In this document: positions 1 to 9,677 of the stretch, one piece after another
How the letters are laid out: each line of letters starts with the position of its first letter
How positions within the stretch are numbered: position 1 is the stretch's first letter
IMG/VR virus record: IMGVR_UViG_2585427748_000017
Location: 1-9,677 of that record
Reading direction: 5' to 3' (one strand)
DNA: 9,677 nucleotides
Origin: a virus
Taxonomy: Duplodnaviria; Heunggongvirae; Uroviricota; Caudoviricetes
Made by a program: the position numbers and the translations under genes
The notes under the pieces: generated by a model
Told to the model about the DNA's origin: nothing
The model's database searches: none
The model's input: the letters and a program-made list of their open reading frames with translations, nothing else

Positions 1-138
1 GTGTTTGATTTTAGCAAACTGATTCGGGAGATTCGAGTGATGGCTGAAAAATTATCCACCTGGAAGTTCATTCTTATCTGGCTGGTGTTTGTGATTATGG
101 CCTCCGGTTATTTCATCGGTCAGATACGCTGGTGGTGA
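1..138 (+). CDS. 3' end of an unidentified upstream gene (45 codons in window); C-terminal hydrophobic segment, stop 4 nt before Rz start
   Basis: Only frame 1 is open across 1-135 (frames 2 and 3 hit stops within the first 25 nt); stop TGA at 136-138 with Rz ATG at 140, suggesting translational coupling. Translation ...KLSTWKFILIWLVFVIMASGYFIGQIRWW ends in an approx 18-residue hydrophobic stretch. It does not resemble the C-terminus of lambda R or phage 21 R endolysin as I recall them. Function not assigned. Confidence 0.35.
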   Translation: MFDFSKLIREIRVMAEKLSTWKFILIWLVFVIMASGYFIGQIRWW

Positions 139-139
139 A

Positions 140-607
140 ATGAACCGCGTACTGTGCGTGGTCATCATTGCCCTGCTGGTGGCCTGTGGTGCGCTTAGTC
201 TGGGGCTGAATCATTACCGTGATAACGCCATAACCTACAAAGAGCAGCGCGATAAAAAAGTCAGTGAGCTGGAGCTGGCAAATGCAACCATTACTGATAT
301 GCAGCAGCGCCAGCGTGATGTTGCTGCACTTGATGCCAGATACTCGAGGGAATTAGCCGATGCGAGAGCTGAAAATGAAACTCTTCGCGCTGACGTTGCC
401 GCTGGTCACCGCAGCCTGCGGATCAACGCCACCTGTCCAGGTCCCGTGCGTGAAGCCACCGGCACCGCCCGCGTGGATAATGCAACCGGCCCCCAACTGG
501 CAGACACCGTTACACGGGATTATTTCACCCTCAGAGAGCGGCTGATGACGATGCAGAAGCAACTGGAAGGGGCACAGGACTATATCCGCACTCAGTGCCT
601 GAAATAA
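140..607 (+). CDS. Rz: Rz i-spanin (inner-membrane spanin subunit), lambda Rz homologue
   Basis: 155-aa ORF with N-terminal hydrophobic anchor (VLCVVIIALLVACGALSLGL) followed by NHYRDNAITYK...DMQQRQRDVAALDA...RDYFTLRERLMTMQKQLEG, which aligns along its length with lambda Rz as I recall it. Stop TAA 605-607. Contains an embedded +1-frame lipoprotein ORF (Rz1). Confidence 0.85.
   Translation: MNRVLCVVIIALLVACGALSLGLNHYRDNAITYKEQRDKKVSELELANATITDMQQRQRDVAALDARYSRELADARAENETLRADVAAGHRSLRINATCPGPVREATGTARVDNATGPQLADTVTRDYFTLRERLMTMQKQLEGAQDYIRTQCLK
360..545 (+). CDS. Rz1: Rz1 o-spanin (outer-membrane lipoprotein spanin subunit), fully embedded in Rz in another frame
   Basis: 61-aa ORF inside Rz: MRELKMKLFALTLPLVTAAC (signal peptide with lipobox-like TAAC) followed by a proline-rich mature part VKPPAPPAWIMQPAPNWQTPLHGIISPSESG, closely matching lambda Rz1 (…CVKPPPPPAWIMQPPPDWQTPLNGIISPSERG). 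Stop TGA 543-545. Confidence 0.8.
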   Translation: MRELKMKLFALTLPLVTAACGSTPPVQVPCVKPPAPPAWIMQPAPNWQTPLHGIISPSESG

Positions 608-957
608 GTTTTGCTGATGCGCGGTATTGTCGCCGTATCCCCGCATTAACAGAGACCGCAGCCCGACAGGGAGACTCCTCTGCGCGAGTGTGCGGGGATA
701 ATCAAAAACGATACACACCGGGGTTTACCGCGTTAACGGAGCGCGGCGTTGTCCCCTCATAGTCGCCTGTCCGGTGCGATGGTGGAAGAAGCCGGATGTT
801 TATCACTATTAATTGATGACACAGAAATGGATTCATTGAATTTCAGCACGTTTTTGTATTCGTGTTATTGAACATCTGTTTATTTTACTTTTAACATATT
901 GATAATAAAAAGAGCTGTAAATCTTTAGATGAGTCGATTTTGTCCGGGGAAGTTCAA

Positions 958-1098
958 ATGGATTTTATGCTGACGGTTTCTGGTGTGGTTATCCTGTCCA
1001 TTGCTTATACTGCAGATAAATATGGCTGCCATTTGTTATCACGTATTGGCGCTTATTGTTCGTTGATGCTGATTTTCTCGTCGCTTTTTTTTGAGTAA
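958..1098 (+). CDS. hypothetical small hydrophobic protein (46 aa), possible membrane peptide
   Basis: ATG at 958 preceded by GGGGA (945-949, 8-nt spacing); translation MDFMLTVSGVVILSIAYTADKYGCHLLSRIGAYCSLMLIFSSLFFE, stop TAA 1096-1098. Lies in an AT-rich island; candidate promoter TTGAAC (868-873) - 18 nt - TAACAT (892-897). Below the 60-aa cutoff of the supplied ORF track; coding status unproven. Confidence 0.3.
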   Translation: MDFMLTVSGVVILSIAYTADKYGCHLLSRIGAYCSLMLIFSSLFFE

Positions 1099-1230
1099 GT
1101 TATATTAATTATAACAAATAATTTTCTGTGTTATTTTTTCAGGCTATCCCGTCAGAGGGGAAGCCTGTACTGCCAGGGAGCGAATGGAAAACTGATGTGT
1201 CCGGTAACTGCGTGTTCTGTGAACACCATG

Positions 1231-1416
1231 TTACTTAATTATGTAATTCATACCCGAACTCTCTGTTGACAGCCTTCTTCTGCAGGCTTCAATAACCCAC
1301 GCTGAAAAGTTTCCTGAACCTTTCAGATCAAGAGCGATGTTAATTTGTTCAATCATCTGGTTTGGAAATCGGATGTTGCGGGTTGTTGTTCTGCGCGTTC
1401 TGTTTTTTGATGACAT
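1231..1416 (-). CDS. ylcI: small ribbon-helix-helix-like protein, YlcI-like (DUF3950 family) of DLP12-type prophages
   Basis: 61-aa minus-strand ORF MSSKNRTRRTTTRNIRFPNQMIEQINIALDLKGSGNFSAWVIEACRRRL..., with ATG at 1416-1414 and GGGGA 7 nt upstream on the minus strand. Basic N-terminus, short beta-strand (IRF), then two helices is the RHH pattern. Position immediately upstream of and divergent from cos/Nu1 matches ylcI-nohD in E. coli DLP12 as I recall it. Confidence 0.65.
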   Translation of the reverse strand: MSSKNRTRRTTTRNIRFPNQMIEQINIALDLKGSGNFSAWVIEACRRRLSTESSGMNYIIK

Positions 1417-1589
1417 AATGTTTCCCCATATTCAGTGTTGCTGATTTGTATTATCAGAAGTTGCTTTTACGTTAATTTGACGCAGATCAATTAATACGAT
1501 ACCTGCGTCATAATTGATTATTTCTCGTGGTTTGATGGCGTACACACATGTTGTGATAAACCTTATATAGATGATAATAATTATCATTT

Positions 1590-1850
1590 CGTGGGTCCTT
1601 TCCGGCGATCCGACCGGTTACGGGGCGGCGACCTCGCGCGTTTTCACTATTTATGAGATTTTTTGAGGGGGTGGTTGTTGTTTAATTGTTTGGTATATCT
1701 AATTGATAAGTAAGGTGAAAATAAAATAAATACAACAACCTTACGATGTGTTTTGATGTCGTCAATGCGAAAAATGTCAATGATATCAAATGGTTTTGCA
1801 AAAACACATGGTTGTTGTTTCGCTTTTTATCGATGACTTATGGAGAGGAG
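1590..1850. other. cos: cos packaging site: cosQ-side flank, cosN (12-nt cohesive end GGGCGGCGACCT at 1623-1634) and cosB region up to the Nu1 start
   Basis: Sequence ATAATTATCATTTCGTGGGTCCTTTCCGGCGATCCGACCGGTTACG|GGGCGGCGACCTCGCGCGTTTTCACTATTTATGA matches the lambda right-end/left-end junction nearly base for base (lambda: ...GGGTCCTTTCCGGCGATCCGACAGGTTACG|GGGCGGCGACCTCGCGGGTTTTCGCTATTTATGA). The downstream approx 215 bp before Nu1 carries direct repeats TGGTTGTTGTTT (1672-1683, 1809-1820) and GTCAATG (1761-1767, 1776-1782), candidate terminase/IHF binding elements. Confidence 0.85.
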
Positions 1851-2357
1851 ATGGCCTTTTTATTGAATAAAAGTGATATGGCCTCCTCCATCGGTATCTC
1901 TGTTCAGGCATTTGATAAATGGGGCGTTCCTCCTGTTGAACGTCGGGGGAGGGAAGTTTTATATGACGTTAAAACTGTACTGGAGATAGATCGCGAGCGG
2001 CGACAACACAATCAGAGAACACCTGATGACGGGGGAGAACTGGAGGAAAGGCTGCTTCGGGCCAGAGCTGAACTGACAGAAGAACAGGCTGTAGCTCAAA
2101 AACTTAAAAATCAGGTAACCGAAGGTAAGCTCATCGATTCAGACTTCTGCGTTTTCGCCCTCAGCAAACTGGCGATGGCATTGTCCAGTACGCTTGATTC
2201 CATTCCGTTATCCATGCAGCGACAGTTCCCGGATTTAACGCCACGTCATATTGACCATCTGAAAACCCTTATTGCAAAGGGCGCAAATCAGTGTGCGCGG
2301 GCAGGGGATAAATTACCGGATTTGCTGGATGAATATATCAGAGCAACAACTGAATAA
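1851..2357 (+). CDS. nu1: terminase small subunit (lambda gpNu1 homologue)
   Basis: ATG 1851 preceded by GGAGAGGAG. Translation MAFLLNKSDMASSIGISVQAFDKWGVPPVERRGREVLYD... aligns with lambda Nu1 (winged-HTH N-terminus, ...FALSKLA...LPLSMQRQFPDLTPRHIDHLK..., C-terminus LLDEYI). The 3' end overlaps the gpA start as in lambda. The ORF-track start at 1746 lies in cosB and is rejected. Confidence 0.85.
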   Translation: MAFLLNKSDMASSIGISVQAFDKWGVPPVERRGREVLYDVKTVLEIDRERRQHNQRTPDDGGELEERLLRARAELTEEQAVAQKLKNQVTEGKLIDSDFCVFALSKLAMALSSTLDSIPLSMQRQFPDLTPRHIDHLKTLIAKGANQCARAGDKLPDLLDEYIRATTE

Positions 2358-4257
2358 TATGGTGGCCGCCGTTTCGGTTGCGCTGCAGCCTCTGGTCAGG
2401 GTTGTACCGATGACGGCAGTTGAATGGGCTGACCAGTATTATTATCTGCCGAAAGAATCCTCATACGGTGACGGCGAATGGAAAACGCTGCCGTTCCAGA
2501 TCGCCATCATGAACAGTATGGGGAATGATCAGATCCGCACTGTTAATCTGATTAAATCTGCCCGTGTTGGCTATACAAAGATGTTGCTGGGAGTCGCCGG
2601 GTATTTTATTGAGCATAAATCCCGAAACAGTCTGCTTTTTCAGCCCACGGATTCTGCCGCTGAAGATTTTATGAAGTCTCACGTGGAGGCGACGATTCGG
2701 GACGTGCCATGCCTGAAAGATCTTTCCCCGTGGCTGGGTCGTAAACATCGTGACAATACTCTCACGCTGAAACGCTTTTCATCGGGGGTGGGCTTCTGGT
2801 GCCTGGGTGGTGCGGCAGCAAAAAACTACCGTGAAAAATCCGTGGACGTGGTCTGCTATGACGAACTTTCCTCGTTCGAGCCGGATGTCGAAAAAGAGGG
2901 CTCGCCAACCCTGCTGGGGGATAAGCGTATTGAGGGCTCGGTATGGCCAAAATCCATTCGCGGCTCGACGCCTAAAATAAAAGGCTCCTGCCAGATCGAA
3001 AAAGCGGCCAACGAGTCGGCGCATTTCATGCGTTTTTATGTGCCCTGCCCGCACTGTGGGGAGGCGCAGTATCTGAAATTTGGCGATGAGTCCACGCCTT
3101 TTGGCCTTAAATGGGAGAAGGACAGCCCCGAAAGCGTTTTCTACCTCTGTGAACATCATGGCTGCGTGATCCATCAGTCTGAGCTTGACCAGAGCAACGG
3201 GCGGTGGATCTGCGAAAACACGGGGATGTGGACCCGCGACGGTCTGACGTTTTTCAGCGCCGCGGATAATGAAATTCCGCCGCCGCGCTCCATCACATTC
3301 CATATCTGGACGGCGTACAGTCCGTTCACCACCTGGGTACAGATTGTCTATGACTGGCTGGATGCACTGAAAGATCCCAACGGCCTGAAAACCTTTGTGA
3401 ACACCACGCTGGGCGAGACCTGGGAAGAGGCCGTGGGCGAAAAACTCGATCACCAGGTACTGATGGATAAGGTTGTGCATTACACGGCGGCGGTGCCTGC
3501 CCGGGTGGTTTATCTGACGGCGGGCATTGACTCGCAGCGAAACCGTTTTGAGATGTATGTCTGGGGATGGGCACCGGGAGAGGAAGCTTTTCTGGTGGAT
3601 AAAATCATCATTATGGGCCGTCCCGATGAGGAAGAGACGCTGTTACGTGTGGATGCGGCGATCAACAAAAAATACTGCCATGCAGACGGAACCGAAATGA
3701 CCATTTCCCGTGTCTGCTGGGACACCGGGGGGATCGATGGTGAAATTGTCTATCAGAGGTCAAAAAAACACGGTGTTTTCCGGGTGCTGCCGGTAAAAGG
3801 CGCATCTGTCTATGGCAAGCCGGTGATCACCATGCCGAAAACCCGCAATCAGCGGGGCGTTTATCTGTGTGAAGTGGGGACGGACACCGCAAAAGAAATT
3901 CTCTATGCCCGTATGAAAGCCGAGCCCACGCCTGCGGATGAAGCCACGTCGTATGCCATCCGTTTTCCTGATGATCCGGAGATTTTTTCGCAGACAGAGG
4001 CGCAGCAACTGGTCGCGGAAGAGCTTGTGGAGAAGTGGGAAAAAGGAAAGATGCGTCTGCTGTGGGATAACAAAAAGCGGCGTAACGAAGCGCTGGACTG
4101 CCTGGTGTATGCCTACGCGGCATTACGTGTGTCCGTGCAACGCTGGCAGCTTGATCTGGCTGTACTGGCAAAATCCCGGGAAGAAGAGACGACCCGGCCA
4201 ACCCTTAAAGAACTGGCAGCGAAGCTGTCCGGAGGAGTGAATGGTTACAGTCGCTGA
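2329..4257 (+). CDS. A: terminase large subunit (lambda gpA homologue)
   Basis: Collinear with lambda gpA over the full length (TAVEWAD..YYLPKESSY, GFWCLGGAAAKNYREKSVDV, GDKRIEGSVWPKSIRGSTPK, CPHCGE.QYLKFGD, HIWTAYSPFTTWVQIV, CWDTGGID, KRRNEALDC, RWQLDL). ATG 2329 (MNISEQQ) corresponds to lambda MNISNSQ; the TTG at 2272 listed in the ORF track is an upstream artefact. Stop TGA 4255-4257. Confidence 0.95.
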   Translation: MNISEQQLNNMVAAVSVALQPLVRVVPMTAVEWADQYYYLPKESSYGDGEWKTLPFQIAIMNSMGNDQIRTVNLIKSARVGYTKMLLGVAGYFIEHKSRNSLLFQPTDSAAEDFMKSHVEATIRDVPCLKDLSPWLGRKHRDNTLTLKRFSSGVGFWCLGGAAAKNYREKSVDVVCYDELSSFEPDVEKEGSPTLLGDKRIEGSVWPKSIRGSTPKIKGSCQIEKAANESAHFMRFYVPCPHCGEAQYLKFGDESTPFGLKWEKDSPESVFYLCEHHGCVIHQSELDQSNGRWICENTGMWTRDGLTFFSAADNEIPPPRSITFHIWTAYSPFTTWVQIVYDWLDALKDPNGLKTFVNTTLGETWEEAVGEKLDHQVLMDKVVHYTAAVPARVVYLTAGIDSQRNRFEMYVWGWAPGEEAFLVDKIIIMGRPDEEETLLRVDAAINKKYCHADGTEMTISRVCWDTGGIDGEIVYQRSKKHGVFRVLPVKGASVYGKPVITMPKTRNQRGVYLCEVGTDTAKEILYARMKAEPTPADEATSYAIRFPDDPEIFSQTEAQQLVAEELVEKWEKGKMRLLWDNKKRRNEALDCLVYAYAALRVSVQRWQLDLAVLAKSREEETTRPTLKELAAKLSGGVNGYSR

Positions 4258-4447
4258 ACTACAGGCGCTGCGTCAGGCGCGCCTTGATTTATTAACCGGT
4301 AAACGGGTGGTGTCTGTCCAGAAAGATGGTCGCAGAATTGAATATACGGCGGCTTCTCTGGATGAGCTTAACCGGGCGATCAATGATGCGGAGTCGGTAC
4401 TGGGGACAACCCGACGTCGCCGTCGTCCGCTGGGAGTGAGGTTATGA
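4241..4447 (+). CDS. W: head-tail joining / head completion protein (lambda gpW homologue)
   Basis: 68-aa ORF with GGAGGAG 4 nt upstream. MVTVAELQALRQARLDLLTGKRVVSVQKDGRRIEYTAASLDEL... matches lambda gpW (…[27 protein letters not shown]…). Overlaps the gpA 3' end; stop TGA 4445-4447 overlaps the B start (ATGA). Confidence 0.85.
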   Translation: MVTVAELQALRQARLDLLTGKRVVSVQKDGRRIEYTAASLDELNRAINDAESVLGTTRRRRRPLGVRL

Positions 4448-6036
4448 AACGAACGCCTGTCCTGATTGATGTGAACGGCGTTCCGCTTCGTGAGAGTCTC
4501 AGCTACAACGGGGGCGGCGCAGGATTTGGCGGGCAAATGGCGGAGTGGTTGCCACCGGCGCAGAGTGCCGATGCGGCCCTGCTACCCGCGTTGCGTCTGG
4601 GGAATGCCCGGGCAGATGATCTGGTGCGCAATAACGGAATAGCGGCTAATGCGGTGGCTCTGCATAAGGATCACATTGTCGGGCATATGTTTCTGATCAG
4701 CTACCGTCCGAACTGGCGCTGGCTGGGGATGCGGGAGACCGCAGCAAAAAGTTTTGTCGATGAGGTGGAGGCGGCCTGGTCGGAATACGCCGAAGGGATG
4801 TTTGGTGAGATCGACGTGGAAGGAAAACGCACGTTCACGGAATTTATCCGTGAAGGTGTGGGCGTTCATGCGTTTAACGGCGAAATCTTTGTGCAGCCGG
4901 TCTGGGATACGGAGAGTACGCAACTGTTTCGTACGCGTTTTAAAGCCGTGAGTCCGAAACGGGTGGACACGCCTGGACACGGTATGGGGAACCGTTTTCT
5001 GCGGGCCGGTGTGGAGGTCGATCGATATGGCCGTGCCGTCGCGTACCATATTTGTGAGGACGATTTTCCGTTCTCTGGTAGTGGACGATGGGAACGGATC
5101 CCGCGTGAACTTCCCACCGGGCGTCCGGCCATGCTGCATATTTTCGAGCCGGTGGAGGACGGGCAGACCCGTGGAGCCAATCAGTTTTACAGCGTTATGG
5201 AACGGCTGAAGATGCTGGATTCCCTGCAGGCAACACAGCTTCAGTCGGCCATAGTGAAGGCGATGTATGCAGCGACGATTGAAAGTGAACTTGATACCGA
5301 AAAGGCCTTTGAATATATCGCCGGTGCGCCGCAGGGGCAGAAGGATAATCCGCTTATTAATATTCTGGATAAGTTCTCCACCTGGTATGACACGAATCAC
5401 GTGACGCTGGGCGGTGTCAAAATTCCGCACCTTTTCCCCGGTGATGATCTGAAACTTCAGACCGCGCAGGATTCAGACAATGGATTTTCGGCGCTTGAAC
5501 AGGCGCTGCTGCGGTATATCGCCGCCGGTCTTGGCGTTTCCTACGAACAGTTGTCCCGTGATTACTCGAAGGTCAGTTATTCAAGTGCCCGCGCCTCCGC
5601 CAATGAGTCGTGGCGCTATTTTATGGGGCGGCGAAAATTTATTGCGTCCCGGCTGGCCACGCAGATGTTTTCCTGCTGGCTGGAAGAGGCACTTCTTCGG
5701 GGGATTATTCGTCCGCCACGGGCACGGTTTGATTTTTATCAGGCGCGATCAGCCTGGTCACGGGCTGAGTGGATTGGAGCCGGAAGAATGGCCATTGACG
5801 GGCTCAAGGAGGTTCAGGAATCAGTGATGCGCATTGAGGCCGGACTGAGCACGTATGAGAAAGAGCTGGCGCTGATGGGCGAGGATTATCAGGACATTTT
5901 CCGCCAGCAGGTCAGGGAATCTGCAGAGCGGGAAAAAGCCGGACTCTCACGTCCGGTGTGGATAGCGCAGGCGTATCAGCAGCAGATAGCGGAGAGTCGC
6001 AGGCCGGAAGAGGAGACAACACCACGTGAGACGTAA
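4444..6036 (+). CDS. B: portal protein (lambda gpB homologue)
   Basis: 530-aa ORF collinear with lambda gpB ([140 protein letters not shown]). Confidence 0.95.
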
Positions 6037-7759
6037 TCTTTCACACATTATTGCCGCAGCATTCAATGAACCGCTGCTTCTGGAGCCCGCCTATGCGCGG
6101 GTTTTCTTTTGCGCGCTGGGGCGCGAGATGGGGGCAGCAAGTCTTTCGGTACCGCAACAGCAGGTACAGCTTGATGCTCCCGGAATGCTGGCTGAAACGG
6201 ACGAGTACATGGCCGGAGGTAAACGACCTGCCCGTGTTTACCGGGTGGTGAACGGTATTGCGGTACTGCCGATGAGCGGCACGCTGGTGCACCGGCTGGG
6301 GGGGATGCGGCCATTTTCCGGAATGACTGGCTATGACGGCATTGTCGCCTGTCTTCAGCAGGCAATGGCAGATAGCCAGGTGCGGGGCATACTGCTGGAC
6401 ATTGACAGTCCGGGCGGGCAGGCCGCCGGCGCGTTTGACTGCGCTGACATGATTTACCGCCTCCGTCAGCAGAAGCCGGTCTGGGCACTGTGCAATGACA
6501 CGGCCTGTTCTGCAGCCATGCTGCTGGCGTCGGCCTGCTCCCGACGGCTGGTTACCCAGACATCCCGTATCGGCTCCATTGGCGTGATGATGAGCCATGT
6601 CAGCTATGCCGGTCATCTGGCGCAGGCCGGTGTGGATATCACGCTGATTTATGCCGGGGCGCACAAGGTGGATGGCAATCAGTTTGAAGCGTTGCCGGCA
6701 GAGGTTCGCCAGGATATGCAGCAGCGGATTGATGCGGCGCACCGGATGTTTGCCGAAAAAGTGGCGATGTATACCGGGTTGTCTGTGGATGCGGTCACGG
6801 GAACAGAGGCCGCCGTTTTTGAAGGTCAGTCCGGCATTGAGGCCGGGCTGGCGGATGAATTAATCAATGCGTCGGATGCCATCAGTGTGATGGCCACGGC
6901 GCTGAACAGTAATGTCAGAGGAGGCACTATGCCGCAATTAACTGCAACGGAAGCCGCCGTGCAGGAGAACCAGCGAGTGATGGGGATCCTGACATGCCAG
7001 GAAGCGAAAGGACGTGAACAGCTTGCCACGATGCTGGCAGGGCAACAGGGCATGAGCGTTGAACAGGCCCGGGCGATTCTGGCCGCGGCGGCACCGCAGC
7101 AGCCGGTGGCATCCGCGCAGAGTGAAGCCGATCGCATTATGGCGTGTGAAGAAGCGAACGGTCGTGAACAACTGGCAGTAACGCTGGCGGCGATGCCGGA
7201 GATGACGGTGGAAAAAGCCCGCCCGATCCTGGCTGCTTCACCGCAGGCGAATGCCGGACCATCACTCCGTGATCAGATCATGGCCCTGGATGAGGCAAAA
7301 GGGGCTGAGGCGCAGGCTGAACAGCTGGCTGCCTGCCCGGGAATGACCGTGGAGAGCGCCCGGGCTGTGCTGGCTGCGGGATCAGGTACGGGGTCTGCCG
7401 GTGATCATACTCATGGTAATGGTATTCGTTGGCCAGGAGGCGGCGGTTCTGCGTTAGCATTTTATGATGGCGGTGGGTTCACTTATGTCCAGGATTCACA
7501 GTATCAAGTAAGCCCGGGGACTTCTTCCCGTAGATCGTATTATCAACGTATTCAGACACAGTCAGCAGGTGCTCATACCCACTCGCTGTCTGGTACTGCA
7601 GCAAGTTCTGGCGCACATGCACATACTGTAGGTATTGGTGCGCATACGCACTCCGTTGCGATTGGTTCACATGGACACACCATCACCGTTAACGCTGCTG
7701 GTAACGCGGAAAACACCGTCAAAAACATCGCATTTAACTATATTGTGAGGCTTGCATAA
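6026..7759 (+). CDS. C: chimeric ORF: gpC-like prohead protease (S49/SppA-type) with Nu3-like scaffold region, fused in frame near 7380-7400 to a side-tail-fibre (Stf-like) C-terminal His-box domain; likely a deletion remnant
   Basis: First approx 450 aa align with lambda gpC ([105 protein letters not shown], then the IMGIL..EA.GRE module). The last approx 125 aa (GDHTHGNG...[10 protein letters not shown]...[28 protein letters not shown]...[16 protein letters not shown]) carry repeated HxH motifs and the ending typical of lambdoid tail-fibre C-termini; the stop overlaps the tfa start (TAATG). GC content falls at the junction. The start is GTG 6026 (GAGGAG 10 nt upstream) overlapping the B stop; exact start uncertain. 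Confidence 0.75.
6929..7759 (+). CDS. nu3: nested in-frame internal start corresponding to lambda Nu3 scaffolding protein (here continuing into the fused tail-fibre domain)
   Basis: In-frame ATG 6929-6931 preceded by GAGGAGG (6918-6924) that is itself coding (R-G-G-T-M); this mirrors the lambda C/Nu3 arrangement (…SGGRM TKETQ…), where Nu3 starts inside C in the same frame. Expression not verifiable from sequence. Confidence 0.4.
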
Positions 7760-8343
7760 TGGCATTCAGAATGAGTGAACAAGCACGGACCATAAAAATT
7801 TATAATCTGCTGGCCGGAACTAATGAATTTATTGGTGAAGGTGACGCATATATTCCGCCTCATACAGGTCTGCCAGCAAACAGTACCGATATTGCACCAC
7901 CAGATATTCCTGCTGGCTTTGTGGCTGTTTTCAACAGTGATGAGGCATCGTGGCATCTCGTTGAAGACCATCGGGGTAAAACGGTTTATGACGTAGCGTC
8001 AGGGGACGAGTTATTTATTTCTGAACTCGGTCCGTTACCGGAAAATGTTACCTGGTTATCGCCGGAAGGGGAGTTTCAGAAGTGGAACGGCACAGCCTGG
8101 GTGAAGGATACGGAAGCAGAAAAAATGTTCCGGATCCGGGAGGCGGAAGAAACAAAAAACAACCTGATGCAGGTAGCCAGTGAGCATATTGCGCCGCTTC
8201 AGGATGCTGCAGATCTGGAAATTGCAACGGAGGAAGAAACCTCATTGCTGGAAGCCTGGAAAAAGTATCGGGTGTTGCTGAACCGTGTTGATACATCAAC
8301 TGCACCTGATATTGAGTGGCCTACGAACCCTGTCAGGGAGTAA
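7759..8343 (+). CDS. tfa: tail fibre assembly protein (Tfa; lambda Tfa / Mu U / T4 gp38 family)
   Basis: 194-aa [54 protein letters not shown]...[42 protein letters not shown], which I recognise as the Tfa proteins of E. coli lambdoid prophages. The start overlaps the upstream tail-fibre stop (TAATG), the usual stf-tfa coupling. Confidence 0.85.
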
Positions 8344-8391
8344 TCATTGGGATTATGCCGCAGCACGTCTTAAGCAAGAACGTGCTGCGGT
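8178..8391 (+). repeat. direct repeat copy A (tfa 3' end plus downstream hairpin); partner at 9227-9441
   Basis: By eye about 210 bp align between 8178-8391 and 9227-9441 at an offset of about 1049 bp with most positions identical, including the stop codon, TCATTGGGATTATGCCGCAG and the ACGTGCTGCGGTT hairpin arm. Exact identity not computed. Confidence 0.8.
8358..8390. other. perfect 11-bp inverted repeat (CCGCAGCACGT / ACGTGCTGCGG) with 11-nt loop, 15 nt after the tfa stop and 8 nt beyond the convergent methyltransferase stop; possible bidirectional terminator or recombination/junction element
   Basis: Left arm 8358-8368 and right arm 8380-8390 are exact reverse complements. A T6 run follows after a 10-nt gap on the + strand, so this is not a textbook intrinsic terminator. 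A near-identical copy with a 1-nt bulge occurs after the second tfa copy (9407-9440). Confidence 0.3.
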
Positions 8392-8397
8392 TGGATG

Positions 8398-9066
8398 CTA
8401 TTTTTTCCCTGAAGCGGAAAACATTACTACAGTACCTTGAACCTTGGTTTTAACATTCTCGAAATGCTCTGAGAGTATATGTGTTAAGCCTTCTTCGGAA
8501 TCTTTTGTGTTTGAAAAGATGCCTTTCTGATTGTAAATGCGCATCAGTTTTTGACCGAAGCTATTGTGCACAACTCCATCGCCAAGAATTGTGGCTCCGT
8601 ATAGAGTTCCATCGTCAGTTAAGGCCTGCGCCGCATTGCGTATTACACAGCTTTTTGTAGATATATTTCCAGGCAGGCAGTGAAGAAGGTAAAACATGGA
8701 AATGGAATCAAATTGACCATGTAACGCCGCGGGATAAGGTTCAAAAACATCATGGCTAATTTTATGTTTAATTTTTGATTCCCCAGCCCTTGTAGATGCC
8801 GCGTTCAGGCTAGCTTCGTTCAAATCCATTAAAGATATCAGACTACTCTCAGGTACGTGAGTAAGGTAAAACCCAGTTCCAACACCAATATCCAGATGGT
8901 TGTTACCTACATGTTCCAGAAAGTGTGGAAGAAGGTGTTCCTTTGTAGGACATCCCCATGCAAGCCGATTTGATACTCCCAAAACCCACCAGTCATAAAG
9001 CTTTAGGGTAAGTGGTGTGTAAATTTTAGCCCCATCATCTGTGTTTTTTTTCATTGATTTCACCAT
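8398..9066 (-). CDS. ybcY: class I SAM-dependent methyltransferase (Rossmann fold), YbcY-like prophage moron
   Basis: 222-aa minus-strand ORF with methyltransferase motif I LDIGVGTGFY, an acidic residue ending the next strand (SLMDLNE) and a motif II-like FDSISMFYLLHCLPG. No DPPY/NPPY motif, so not obviously a DNA N6-adenine methyltransferase. Visibly more AT-rich than the flanking tfa and head genes. The position between two tfa copies on the opposite strand matches tfaD-ybcY-tfaX in DLP12 as I recall it. The start may be the second ATG (9054, MKKNTDD) rather than 9066. Confidence 0.7.
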   Translation of the reverse strand: MVKSMKKNTDDGAKIYTPLTLKLYDWWVLGVSNRLAWGCPTKEHLLPHFLEHVGNNHLDIGVGTGFYLTHVPESSLISLMDLNEASLNAASTRAGESKIKHKISHDVFEPYPAALHGQFDSISMFYLLHCLPGNISTKSCVIRNAAQALTDDGTLYGATILGDGVVHNSFGQKLMRIYNQKGIFSNTKDSEEGLTHILSEHFENVKTKVQGTVVMFSASGKK

Positions 9067-9122
9067 GTTATAGTTTTATTTGTGAATTAAATCAATTATG
9101 GCGATGAATTACAAGGGGTTAA

Positions 9123-9392
9123 ATGCTGCCGCAGCATAGCGATATTGAAATAGCCTGGTATGCTTCGATACAGCAGGAGCCGAATGGCTGGAAGACCGTC
9201 ACCACACAGTTCTACATCCAGGAATTCAGTGAGTATATTGCGCCACTGCAGGATGCTGTAGATCTGGAAATCGCAACGGAGGAAGAAAGATCGTTGCTGG
9301 AGGCATGGAATAAATATCGGGTATTGTTGAATCGTGTTGATACATCAACTGCACCTGATATTGAGTGGCCTGCAAATCCTGTCAGGGAGTAA
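9123..9392 (+). CDS. tfaX: truncated tail fibre assembly protein copy (TfaX-like; C-terminal Tfa domain with unrelated 35-aa N-terminus)
   Basis: 89-aa ORF; the C-terminal 54 aa ([54 protein letters not shown]) are near-identical to the C-terminus of the 7759-8343 Tfa, while the N-terminus [35 protein letters not shown] is different. ATG 9123 with AAGGGG 4 nt upstream. Probably a remnant of a second tail-fibre cassette. Confidence 0.65.
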
Positions 9393-9441
9393 TCATTGGG
9401 ATTATGCCGCAGACACGTCGTATGCAGGAACGTGCTGCGGT
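9227..9441 (+). repeat. direct repeat copy B (tfaX 3' end plus downstream hairpin); partner at 8178-8391
   Basis: See copy A. The two copies bracket the opposite-strand methyltransferase gene. Confidence 0.8.
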
Positions 9442-9506
9442 TAGTTTGTGAGCTTTCGATAGTGGTTGTTATTTTTGCCCTTATTTGTTCCGGAGGCCAT
9501 GGTTCA

Positions 9507-9677
9507 ATGGTCCGTCTGCCCCCTGTGGTGATGTCAGCAAAATCAGCCACTGCGCGAACCACAATAGCCCGGGAAGATGCTGAAGATCACCAGGTAAAGC
9601 TATCAGCGCAGAAACTGGAAGAACTGCTCGCATCAATGGTTAAGGATGAGGTTGATCGCAATGATGGGATTTATTGA
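9507..9677 (+). CDS. hypothetical small protein (56 aa), charged and probably helical
   Basis: ATG 9507 with GGAGG (9493-9497) 9 nt upstream; translation MVRLPPVVMSAKSATARTTIAREDAEDHQVKLSAQKLEELLASMVKDEVDRNDGIY; stop TGA 9675-9677 at the window edge. The longer TTG-initiated ORF in the track (9396) starts inside the tfa repeat and is rejected. No family recognised. Confidence 0.35.
   Translation: MVRLPPVVMSAKSATARTTIAREDAEDHQVKLSAQKLEELLASMVKDEVDRNDGIY

Follow-up and report, generated by a model that had tools for sequence, protein, structure and literature searches.

The gene ybcY of Escherichia coli K-12 (b0562, prophage DLP12) is known in the literature by its position. It is named as the gene 272 bp from ompT in strains CFT073 (where it is called c0651), UTI89, 536, J96, ABU 83972, and E2348/69; a ybcY mutant behaved like the wild type in a test of Hha toxicity, and a deletion in an ethanol-adapted strain includes it. 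Papers on ybcY, c0651 and the Salmonella gene STM1638 mention them only as flanking or array genes, and searches by accession returned none. Among characterised enzymes, the nearest sequence relatives include CysG and BelI (PDB 9FCD, 9FCE), which are carboxyl O-methyltransferases of 3-isopropylmalate and 3-sec-butylmalate with a catalytic Ca2+ held by a His-His-Asp motif (PMC11408123). For pVAPA_0470, a relative from a Rhodococcus equi virulence plasmid, 'a potential regulatory role' has been suggested (PMC5434932). Here we describe an intact orthologue of ybcY in 9,677 nucleotides (nt) of tailed-phage DNA (IMG/VR record IMGVR_UViG_2585427748_000017, positions 1 to 9,677), hereafter called the window, in which the gene lies on the minus strand among tail-fibre sequences. 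Its product is, by sequence and modelled fold, a class I (Rossmann-fold) S-adenosylmethionine (SAM)-dependent methyltransferase. We consider, with a probability of roughly 0.58, that YbcY is a cytoplasmic small-molecule methyltransferase, possibly metal-assisted, that is carried as cargo by lambda-like prophages.

Identity, gene model and candidate expression signals of ybcY

The 669-nt open reading frame (ORF) occurs at at least 95% nucleotide identity in 3799 of 5426 complete E. coli genomes (~70%), with 1–4 copies each. In an MG1655 derivative, the match is a 'frameshifted' class I methyltransferase between two tfa fragments (tfaD', tfaX') beside appY-ompT in DLP12. Fourteen lambdoid phage records carry the gene, and several sequenced phages are recorded with their propagation host. 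RefSeq already annotates ybcY as a class I SAM-dependent methyltransferase, so the gene is already known as a sequence finding; what goes beyond the original prediction, which had described an orphan methyltransferase from the letters of the window, is its identification as the long-annotated DLP12 ybcY, its presence in ~70% of complete E. coli genomes, and the tracing of its adjacency to tfa to recombination.

The ORF is a real gene, far beyond what chance would produce: a word-seeded database search returned 2296 homologues, dN/dS (the ratio of nonsynonymous to synonymous substitution rates) is ~0.10 against the Citrobacter, Enterobacter, and Klebsiella orthologues, and an intact ORF of 218 amino acids (aa) is present in 78 of 80 IMG/VR prophage contigs (the 80 best, to which all IMG/VR counts refer), usually 0.3–1.3 kb from the contig end. 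In strain ABU 83972 only int', tfa', the intact methyltransferase gene, and ompT remain of the prophage. The low dN/dS, the intact reading frames in IMG/VR contigs and the survival of the gene in this eroded remnant argue that it is functional.

The gene and its candidate signals are as follows.

8398–9054, minus strand: probable coding sequence for a 218-aa class I SAM-dependent methyltransferase of the YbcY family (ORF call, Pfam, PHROG, alignment, AlphaFold2)
9061–9064, minus strand: Shine-Dalgarno-like GGTG, 6 nt upstream of ATG 9054, read from the sequence
9044–9051, minus strand: homopolymer run of eight A residues (A8) directly after the start codon
9067–9095, minus strand: sigma-70 promoter-like TTGATT-17-TATAAC, with the same sequence in K-12, phage ev243, and other loci
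9095–9122, minus strand: alternative promoter-like TTAACC-16-CATAAT, a consensus match only (9/12), with a leader of ~35 nt that includes GGTG
8357–8391, no strand assigned: strong hairpin in the gap that separates the convergent tfa and methyltransferase genes, within the repeated 3' segment of tfa

A mechanical ORF call gives a minus-strand frame of 222 aa (669 nt) at 8398–9066. The start is placed at ATG 9054, and the coding sequence is thus probably 218 aa long, because all 21 aligned homologues start at the residue that matches Met5 of the longer frame, because GGTG stands 6 nt before this codon, and because the RefSeq product of the ABU 83972 copy (a 98.5% identical variant) is 218 aa long (WP_000742375.1). 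Upstream of ATG 9066 there is no element comparable to GGTG. RefSeq retains the 222-aa (669-nt) form for the identical gene of ATCC 11775 and for that of O157.

TTGATT-17-TATAAC is present in 68 of the 80 IMG/VR loci. Shimada et al. (2014) assigned the same hexamers to K-12 ybcY; they fall inside an RpoD-holoenzyme peak that genomic SELEX (systematic evolution of ligands by exponential enrichment) placed in the ybcY/tfaX spacer and that is also marked as H-NS-bound (PMC3946193). Transcription is predicted to start near 9058–9062 or near 9088. A consensus promoter scan of the upstream region found 2 sites compared with 2.7 expected in shuffled sequences, which is no excess. The K-12 reading frame is destroyed exactly at the A8 run, by an ATG>ATA change and a 2-nt deletion. 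Because the run has kept its length in 78 of the 80 contigs, the prophage sequences give no sign of frequent on/off switching there. The hairpin at 8357–8391 folds at −25.4 and −28.6 kcal/mol (z −3.6 and −4.0), with none of 200 shuffles folding as well, and is likely to serve as a transcript end or stabiliser for both tfa and the methyltransferase gene.

Protein class, fold and candidate active site

The class assignment of the original prediction is borne out by Pfam, by an AlphaFold2 model, and by fold searches. Motif I (LDIGVGTGFY) occupies residues 58–67 in 222-aa numbering (nt 8866–8895). Its glycines G61, G63, and G65 are invariant in our alignment A1 and are kept in at least 90% of 108 family representatives; the acidic residue of strand 2, D81 (MDLN), is invariant in all 108 and pairs with the ribose-binding Asp of CysG in the alignment of hidden Markov models (HMMs). 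On alignment, the SAM-binding motifs are all retained. The Pfam matches are all to generic domains of class I methyltransferases, with Methyltransf_12 at 37.5 bits (cut-off 30, E 4e-9) and Methyltransf_23, _25, and _11 likewise above their cut-offs. The match to PHROG 2132 (phrog_2132, unknown function) is end to end, covering profile positions 1–218 of 218 (E 4e-157).

Classification by profile and structure, which the original prediction had proposed as its check, placed the protein in no characterised family whose substrate is known, in agreement with its statement that the substrate is not evident. Pfam, NCBIfam, and PADLOC gave no specific family, either for the query or for 18 other members that are distant or fused. 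The best NCBIfam scores of the query are 18 bits against a cut-off of 180 for CpaM, 17 against 175 for RquA, and 15.7 against 390 for PmtA (NF045882); both the query and ten distant family members stay far below the curated cut-offs for RquA, CpaM, BioC, UbiG, and UbiE, the distant members giving weak matches to BioC and UbiG.

Signatures of DNA methylation are missing throughout the protein, which contains neither the catalytic motif IV pattern [DNS]PP[YFW] nor the Pro-Cys dipeptide of C5-cytosine methyltransferases. It has no Pfam match to N6_Mtase, N6_N4_Mtase, or MethyltransfD12 at E values up to 1 and none to DNA_methylase; PADLOC identified no defence system, its sole hit being mad2 (E 0.009, 12.9 bits). 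No nuclease gene adjoins the methyltransferase gene, both of its neighbours being tfa sequences. The original prediction had noted the lack of DPPY/NPPY and of an adjacent restriction endonuclease, and both observations hold. On our reading, the protein is neither a DNA methyltransferase nor one half of a restriction system, and it plays no part in the assembly of tail fibres.

The AlphaFold2 model has a mean predicted local distance difference test score of 88.4, with only residues 1–15 disordered; its Rossmann fold is preceded by two N-terminal helices and has extra residues inserted after strand 5. The top Foldseek matches are JHAMT, PmtA, CysG, NodS, and SgvM. A family profile built from the 108 representatives has CysG/BelI as its best PDB match (E 7e-8, core only), with NodS, XrdM, PmtA, UbiG, and JHAMT as further matches. 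As judged from these sequence and model comparisons, the best relatives of YbcY are all small-molecule methyltransferases.

Comparison with CysG points to a candidate active site. In an hhalign alignment (probability 98%), His129-Cys130 of YbcY (nt 8677–8682, after strand 4) falls on the His-His pair of CysG-like proteins. Only D81, H129, and G157 are invariant among the 108 representatives, and C39, C130, N186, and D189 each recur in at least 90% of them. The position of His129-Cys130 at the CysG/BelI His-His site makes metal-assisted catalysis plausible, and a metal- or base-assisted active site after strand 4 may be envisaged from the sequence. Alignments to CysG end near residue 158 (218-aa numbering) or profile position 154; an hhalign comparison with three CysG-like sequences that include the C terminus covered the core only and did not place the third metal ligand, Asp, although N186 and D189 are conserved in the vicinity. 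A search for homologues that started from 100 aa of CysG yielded fragments only. YbcY has no conserved Arg matching the substrate-binding residues of CysG/BelI (Arg22, His167, Arg187), full-length homology to these enzymes was not found, and no beta-lactone gene cluster lies near ybcY.

Prophage setting, probable cassette exchange and family distribution

Genes of the window were identified by Pfam, and the features around the methyltransferase gene are listed below.

140–607, plus strand: Rz (Phage_lysis)
1231–1416, minus strand: DUF3950/YlcI-like protein
1746–2357: Nu1
2272–4257: terminase large subunit
4241–4447: gpW
4444–6036: portal
6026–7759: S49 protease (gpC)
7759–8343, plus strand: complete tail-fibre assembly gene tfa (Caudo_TAP, E 1e-44), convergent with the methyltransferase gene
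8167–8392, plus strand: direct repeat copy 1, comprising the tfa 3' end and the downstream hairpin (repeat families D1 and D2, 197 + 29 nt)
9123–9392, plus strand: 5'-truncated tfa remnant (Caudo_TAP positions 75–130 only), divergent from the methyltransferase gene
9216–9442, plus strand: direct repeat copy 2, at the 3' end of the truncated tfa remnant

The gpC ORF at 6026–7759 is fused to the His-rich C terminus of the side tail fibre (the 3' end of stf). In the left part of the window, phage matches end at 7362–7388, and matches to the stf-tfa-methyltransferase part begin at ~7387. These split matches and the gpC-stf fusion indicate that all capsid and tail genes between them have been deleted and that the prophage is defective; the junction was not found in one piece among the complete E. 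coli genomes of the collection. The tfa remnant corresponds to K-12 tfaX' and is annotated elsewhere as a partial pseudogene.

The two ~226-nt repeat copies are 89–90% identical, lie 1049–1050 nt apart, and bracket the methyltransferase cassette. The gene has a GC content of 41.2%, with 35.6% at third codon positions (GC3), compared with 51.2% GC for the whole window and 60.9% GC3 for the terminase gene. The gene is AT-rich, runs against the tail genes, and is flanked by sequences for tail-fibre assembly, which bears out the view of it as cargo in the original prediction. Homologous recombination at the tfa 3' ends repeated on either side has probably carried the ybcY cassette from one prophage to another, as the sequence arrangement suggests, and its placement beside tfa is best explained by such module exchange and not by a link to tail-fibre function. 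That link was rejected because the gene lies on the opposite strand, a strong hairpin separates it from tfa, and its homologues are ordinary chromosomal genes. A type III effector, as in the cargo found downstream of tail-fibre genes in phages of enterohaemorrhagic E. coli, was likewise rejected because 50–65% identical homologues are chromosomal genes in fungi and other genera.

The same arrangement recurs in other prophages. ATCC 11775, like many further E. coli genomes, has the gene order J, lom, stf, tfa, the methyltransferase gene (opposite strand), a tfa remnant, and then host DNA, so that no intact gene stands between the methyltransferase gene, which is oriented against the tail genes, and the right prophage end. 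Phage ev243 has its methyltransferase, alpha/beta hydrolase, ompT, and int genes all in one orientation, opposite to that of the tail genes. In O157:H7 (ATCC 43888), tfa is separated from the methyltransferase gene by genes for a manganese catalase and a general stress protein and by two ferritin-like genes (locus L102, 1290–3503); the same slot therefore collects other cargo. In lambda such a region is the b region, which a leftward early transcript can read in the replicating phage; in the lambda prophage the attachment site cuts the b region off from the leftward early promoter. By analogy, the same transcription logic may apply to the ybcY region.

Several other observations concern the remainder of the window. 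A nested +1-frame ORF at 360–545 (plus strand) inside Rz has a lipoprotein-like signal (…LVTAAC GS…) and is compatible with an Rz1 o-spanin embedded in Rz. The interval ~800–1750 between Rz and Nu1 is AT-rich (35–41% GC) and holds the DUF3950/YlcI-like gene, as in DLP12. The Nu1 ORF reaches ~40 codons upstream of its Pfam match, and translation probably begins further downstream. At 8102–8300 (plus strand), Rfam reports 'IS009' (RF02111; 223.8 bits against a gathering score of 117); this match lies wholly inside the tfa coding sequence and is probably a sign of tfa conservation, not of an RNA gene in its own right. A small ORF at 8285–8440 (plus strand) extends across the end of tfa and the hairpin into the 3' end of the methyltransferase gene; its equivalents are labelled 'hypothetical protein' in RefSeq and 'nucleocapsid protein' in K-12 records, and it is very likely an annotation artefact.

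The family extends well beyond prophages. A full HMMER scan of 1.84 billion representatives returned 1738 clusters at E values up to 1e-3 and 412 at E values up to 1e-30, nearly all aligned end to end. Stand-alone chromosomal members with 50–75% identity occur in Citrobacter, Enterobacter, Klebsiella, Salmonella, Yersinia (including Y. pestis), Proteus, Erwinia, Pantoea, the Pseudomonas syringae group, Xanthomonas, and Dyella; those of Francisella are more distant (~35% identity), and members in ascomycetes (Fusarium, Aspergillus, Trichoderma, and lichen-forming fungi) are ~50% identical to the Pseudomonas proteins. Longer family members have unannotated N-terminal extensions only, apart from an RCC1 domain in one fungal protein. 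The Salmonella homologue lies between a PMT_2 membrane protein gene and RydC/cybB, in agreement with the published description of STM1638. The small RNA RydC (Rfam, 86.6 bits; locus L003, 8784–8849) lies ~120 nt downstream of it, before cybB. RydC activates cfa, which encodes another SAM-dependent methyltransferase, and the link is probably a coincidence.

Plasmid carriers are also common, with 603 Klebsiella plasmids carrying a homologue. In the example inspected, pWSCRKP-1 (IncFIB/IncHI1B type), a 65% identical homologue (locus L089, 6995–7648) lies less than ~3 kb from rmpD, rmpC, and peg-344, which are markers of hypervirulent Klebsiella strains. On plasmid pEA29 of Erwinia amylovora the homologue adjoins a choline transporter gene, and on R. 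equi pVAPB1413 (locus L100, 7962–8723) and pVAPN (locus L091) a family member lies at the edge of the vap island, divergent from virR-icgA. Clustering of 755 neighbouring ORFs from 65 loci revealed no partner shared across genera, and the chromosomal, plasmid, and island contexts all differ, which suggests that the protein has a self-contained function.

Candidate substrates and comparison with known enzymes

From these data we infer the substrate class, the possible use of a metal, and expression of the gene as follows. The gene would be accessory cargo in a region equivalent to the lambda b region, transcribed opposite to the tail genes, with transcription in a lysogen starting from its own sigma-70 promoter in the AT-rich, H-NS-bound spacer, and the cassette would be exchanged between prophages by recombination at the bracketing tfa 3' ends. 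The enzyme's substrate would be small, non-polymeric, and cytoplasmic (a metabolite, a xenobiotic, or a lipid head group are candidates) and would receive the SAM methyl group by SN2 chemistry on an O or N nucleophile. The substrate may lie under the N-terminal helical lid (YDWWVL..SN..AW.C.T signature) and may also be touched by the loop inserted after strand 5 (YN.KGIFSN..D), with His129-Cys130 sited where the His-His pair of CysG/BelI holds a divalent metal.

Several points weigh against this reading. Homology to characterised enzymes is limited to the SAM-binding core (residues ~50–160), and in the profile and fold searches the lid and the C-terminal specificity regions match nothing characterised. 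Most family members are basic (pI, the isoelectric point, 8–9.4), a property equally compatible with an RNA or membrane substrate. Of the CysG metal ligands, the third is unaligned and the second is replaced by Cys, and no conserved pair of Arg residues for a dicarboxylate is apparent; proximity of H129, C130, N186, and D189 is presumed. Expression of the intact gene is a prediction, the promoter evidence coming from in vitro work and from K-12, and H-NS binding there suggests silencing.

Among the alternatives, methylation of a macromolecule other than DNA (an rRNA or tRNA nucleotide, or a protein side chain), with YbcY serving the lysogen or phage as a regulator or a modifier of translation, is unlikely. 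The basic pI of most of the family would fit it, as would the stand-alone genes without metabolic partners, which are usual for RNA and protein methyltransferases, and the role suggested for pVAPA_0470 (PMC5434932); however, the window copy is near neutral (pI ~7), its 218 aa form a single Rossmann domain plus lid with no RNA-binding or extra domain, the best sequence and Foldseek matches are small-molecule enzymes, and a sporadic accessory distribution that reaches fungi and plasmids would be unusual for an RNA-modification enzyme not involved in resistance. A PmtA-like peripheral membrane enzyme that N-methylates phosphatidylethanolamine (PE) or another lipid head group, and so alters the lysogen membrane, is improbable. 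The 207-aa PE N-methyltransferase of R. thermophilum ranks second and third in Foldseek with full-length coverage, the NCBIfam model of Legionella PmtA gives a weak match, and the two proteins are of similar size; the YbcY family also has a basic pI, and the N-terminal helix of YbcY is hydrophobic and Trp-rich. Against this, the NCBIfam score is far below its cut-off, and the likeness is no better than that to many unrelated small-molecule methyltransferases. To our knowledge, neither methylated PE nor phosphatidylcholine has been reported in E. coli, although ~70% of its genomes carry the gene.

That ybcY is a decaying relic, hitch-hiking in prophage remnants with no current function, seems very improbable. 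The window prophage is indeed defective, the K-12 copy is a pseudogene whose promoter region binds H-NS, and the A8 run is a frameshift hotspot; but the dN/dS value, the preservation of all SAM-binding motifs, the intact frames in prophage contigs and in sequenced lambdoid phage genomes, and an intact ABU 83972 copy beside int and tfa that are already fragments speak for a maintained gene. An orphan DNA methyltransferase that shields phage or host DNA from restriction is hardly credible. Many phage orphan methyltransferases do act on DNA, and this one is phage-borne with a weak mad2 match; yet it has none of the catalytic motifs, no target-recognition domain, and no DNA-methyltransferase Pfam family, its fold neighbours are not DNA methyltransferases, and its close homologues are ordinary chromosomal genes in bacteria and fungi.

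The reading of YbcY as a small-molecule methyltransferase can be taken further, to a rather doubtful proposal in which the family is a new class of metal-assisted (His-Cys) enzymes that mobile elements pass among host-associated microbes. Its carriers would be E. coli prophages, Klebsiella hypervirulence-type plasmids, the R. equi vap island, pEA29, the Salmonella locus near sseJ, and ascomycetes. If this were true, the enzyme would neutralise or modify one metabolite of hosts or competitors and would represent a true lysogenic-conversion trait. An inhibitory di- or tricarboxylic acid that becomes methyl-esterified is a speculative example by analogy, Tam and Tmt1 being known to methyl-esterify trans-aconitate; the only prompt for a carboxylic acid is that the nearest sequence relatives (CysG/BelI, JHAMT, BioC) are carboxyl O-methyltransferases. 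ybcY is among the commonest prophage cargo in E. coli and has relatives in virulence elements of Klebsiella and R. equi. The remaining question is biochemical, and discovery of the substrate would give a function to a very widespread y-gene and could reveal a prophage-conferred host trait.

Compared with known enzymes, YbcY resembles PmtA (PDB 8YS9) in size and superposes on it over the full length, with template modelling scores of 0.61–0.63 (query-normalised) and 0.65–0.67 (target-normalised), whereas sequence identity is only 15–17% and the NCBIfam PmtA model falls short as given above. JHAMT (PDB 7EBS, 7EC0), a carboxyl O-methyltransferase of a small lipophilic acid, is the top Foldseek match (E 1e-11, 21% identity) and the top match of the A1 profile (E 7e-6), but it is an insect enzyme ~50 aa longer than YbcY, and its substrate-binding Trp in 'LHW' is Cys in YbcY ('LHC'). 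CysG/BelI differ at the second metal-ligand position, where they have His and YbcY has Cys130. The vap-island methyltransferase of R. equi (pVAPA_0470 and its pVAPB and pVAPN counterparts) belongs to the same family, with 34–42% identity over the full length, and is, like ybcY, a stand-alone gene of unassigned function on a mobile element; unlike ybcY, it is a distant relation that lies beside virR in an actinobacterial plasmid island and not in a prophage. K-12 ybcY is the closest counterpart, sharing 99% nucleotide identity, the tfa'-ybcY-tfaX' arrangement, and an identical upstream promoter sequence with the window copy. The K-12 gene is a pseudogene that has lost its start codon (ATG>ATA) and 2 nt of the A-run, whereas the copy described here is intact, and the prophage around it is a different one that has eroded less, with terminase and portal genes retained.

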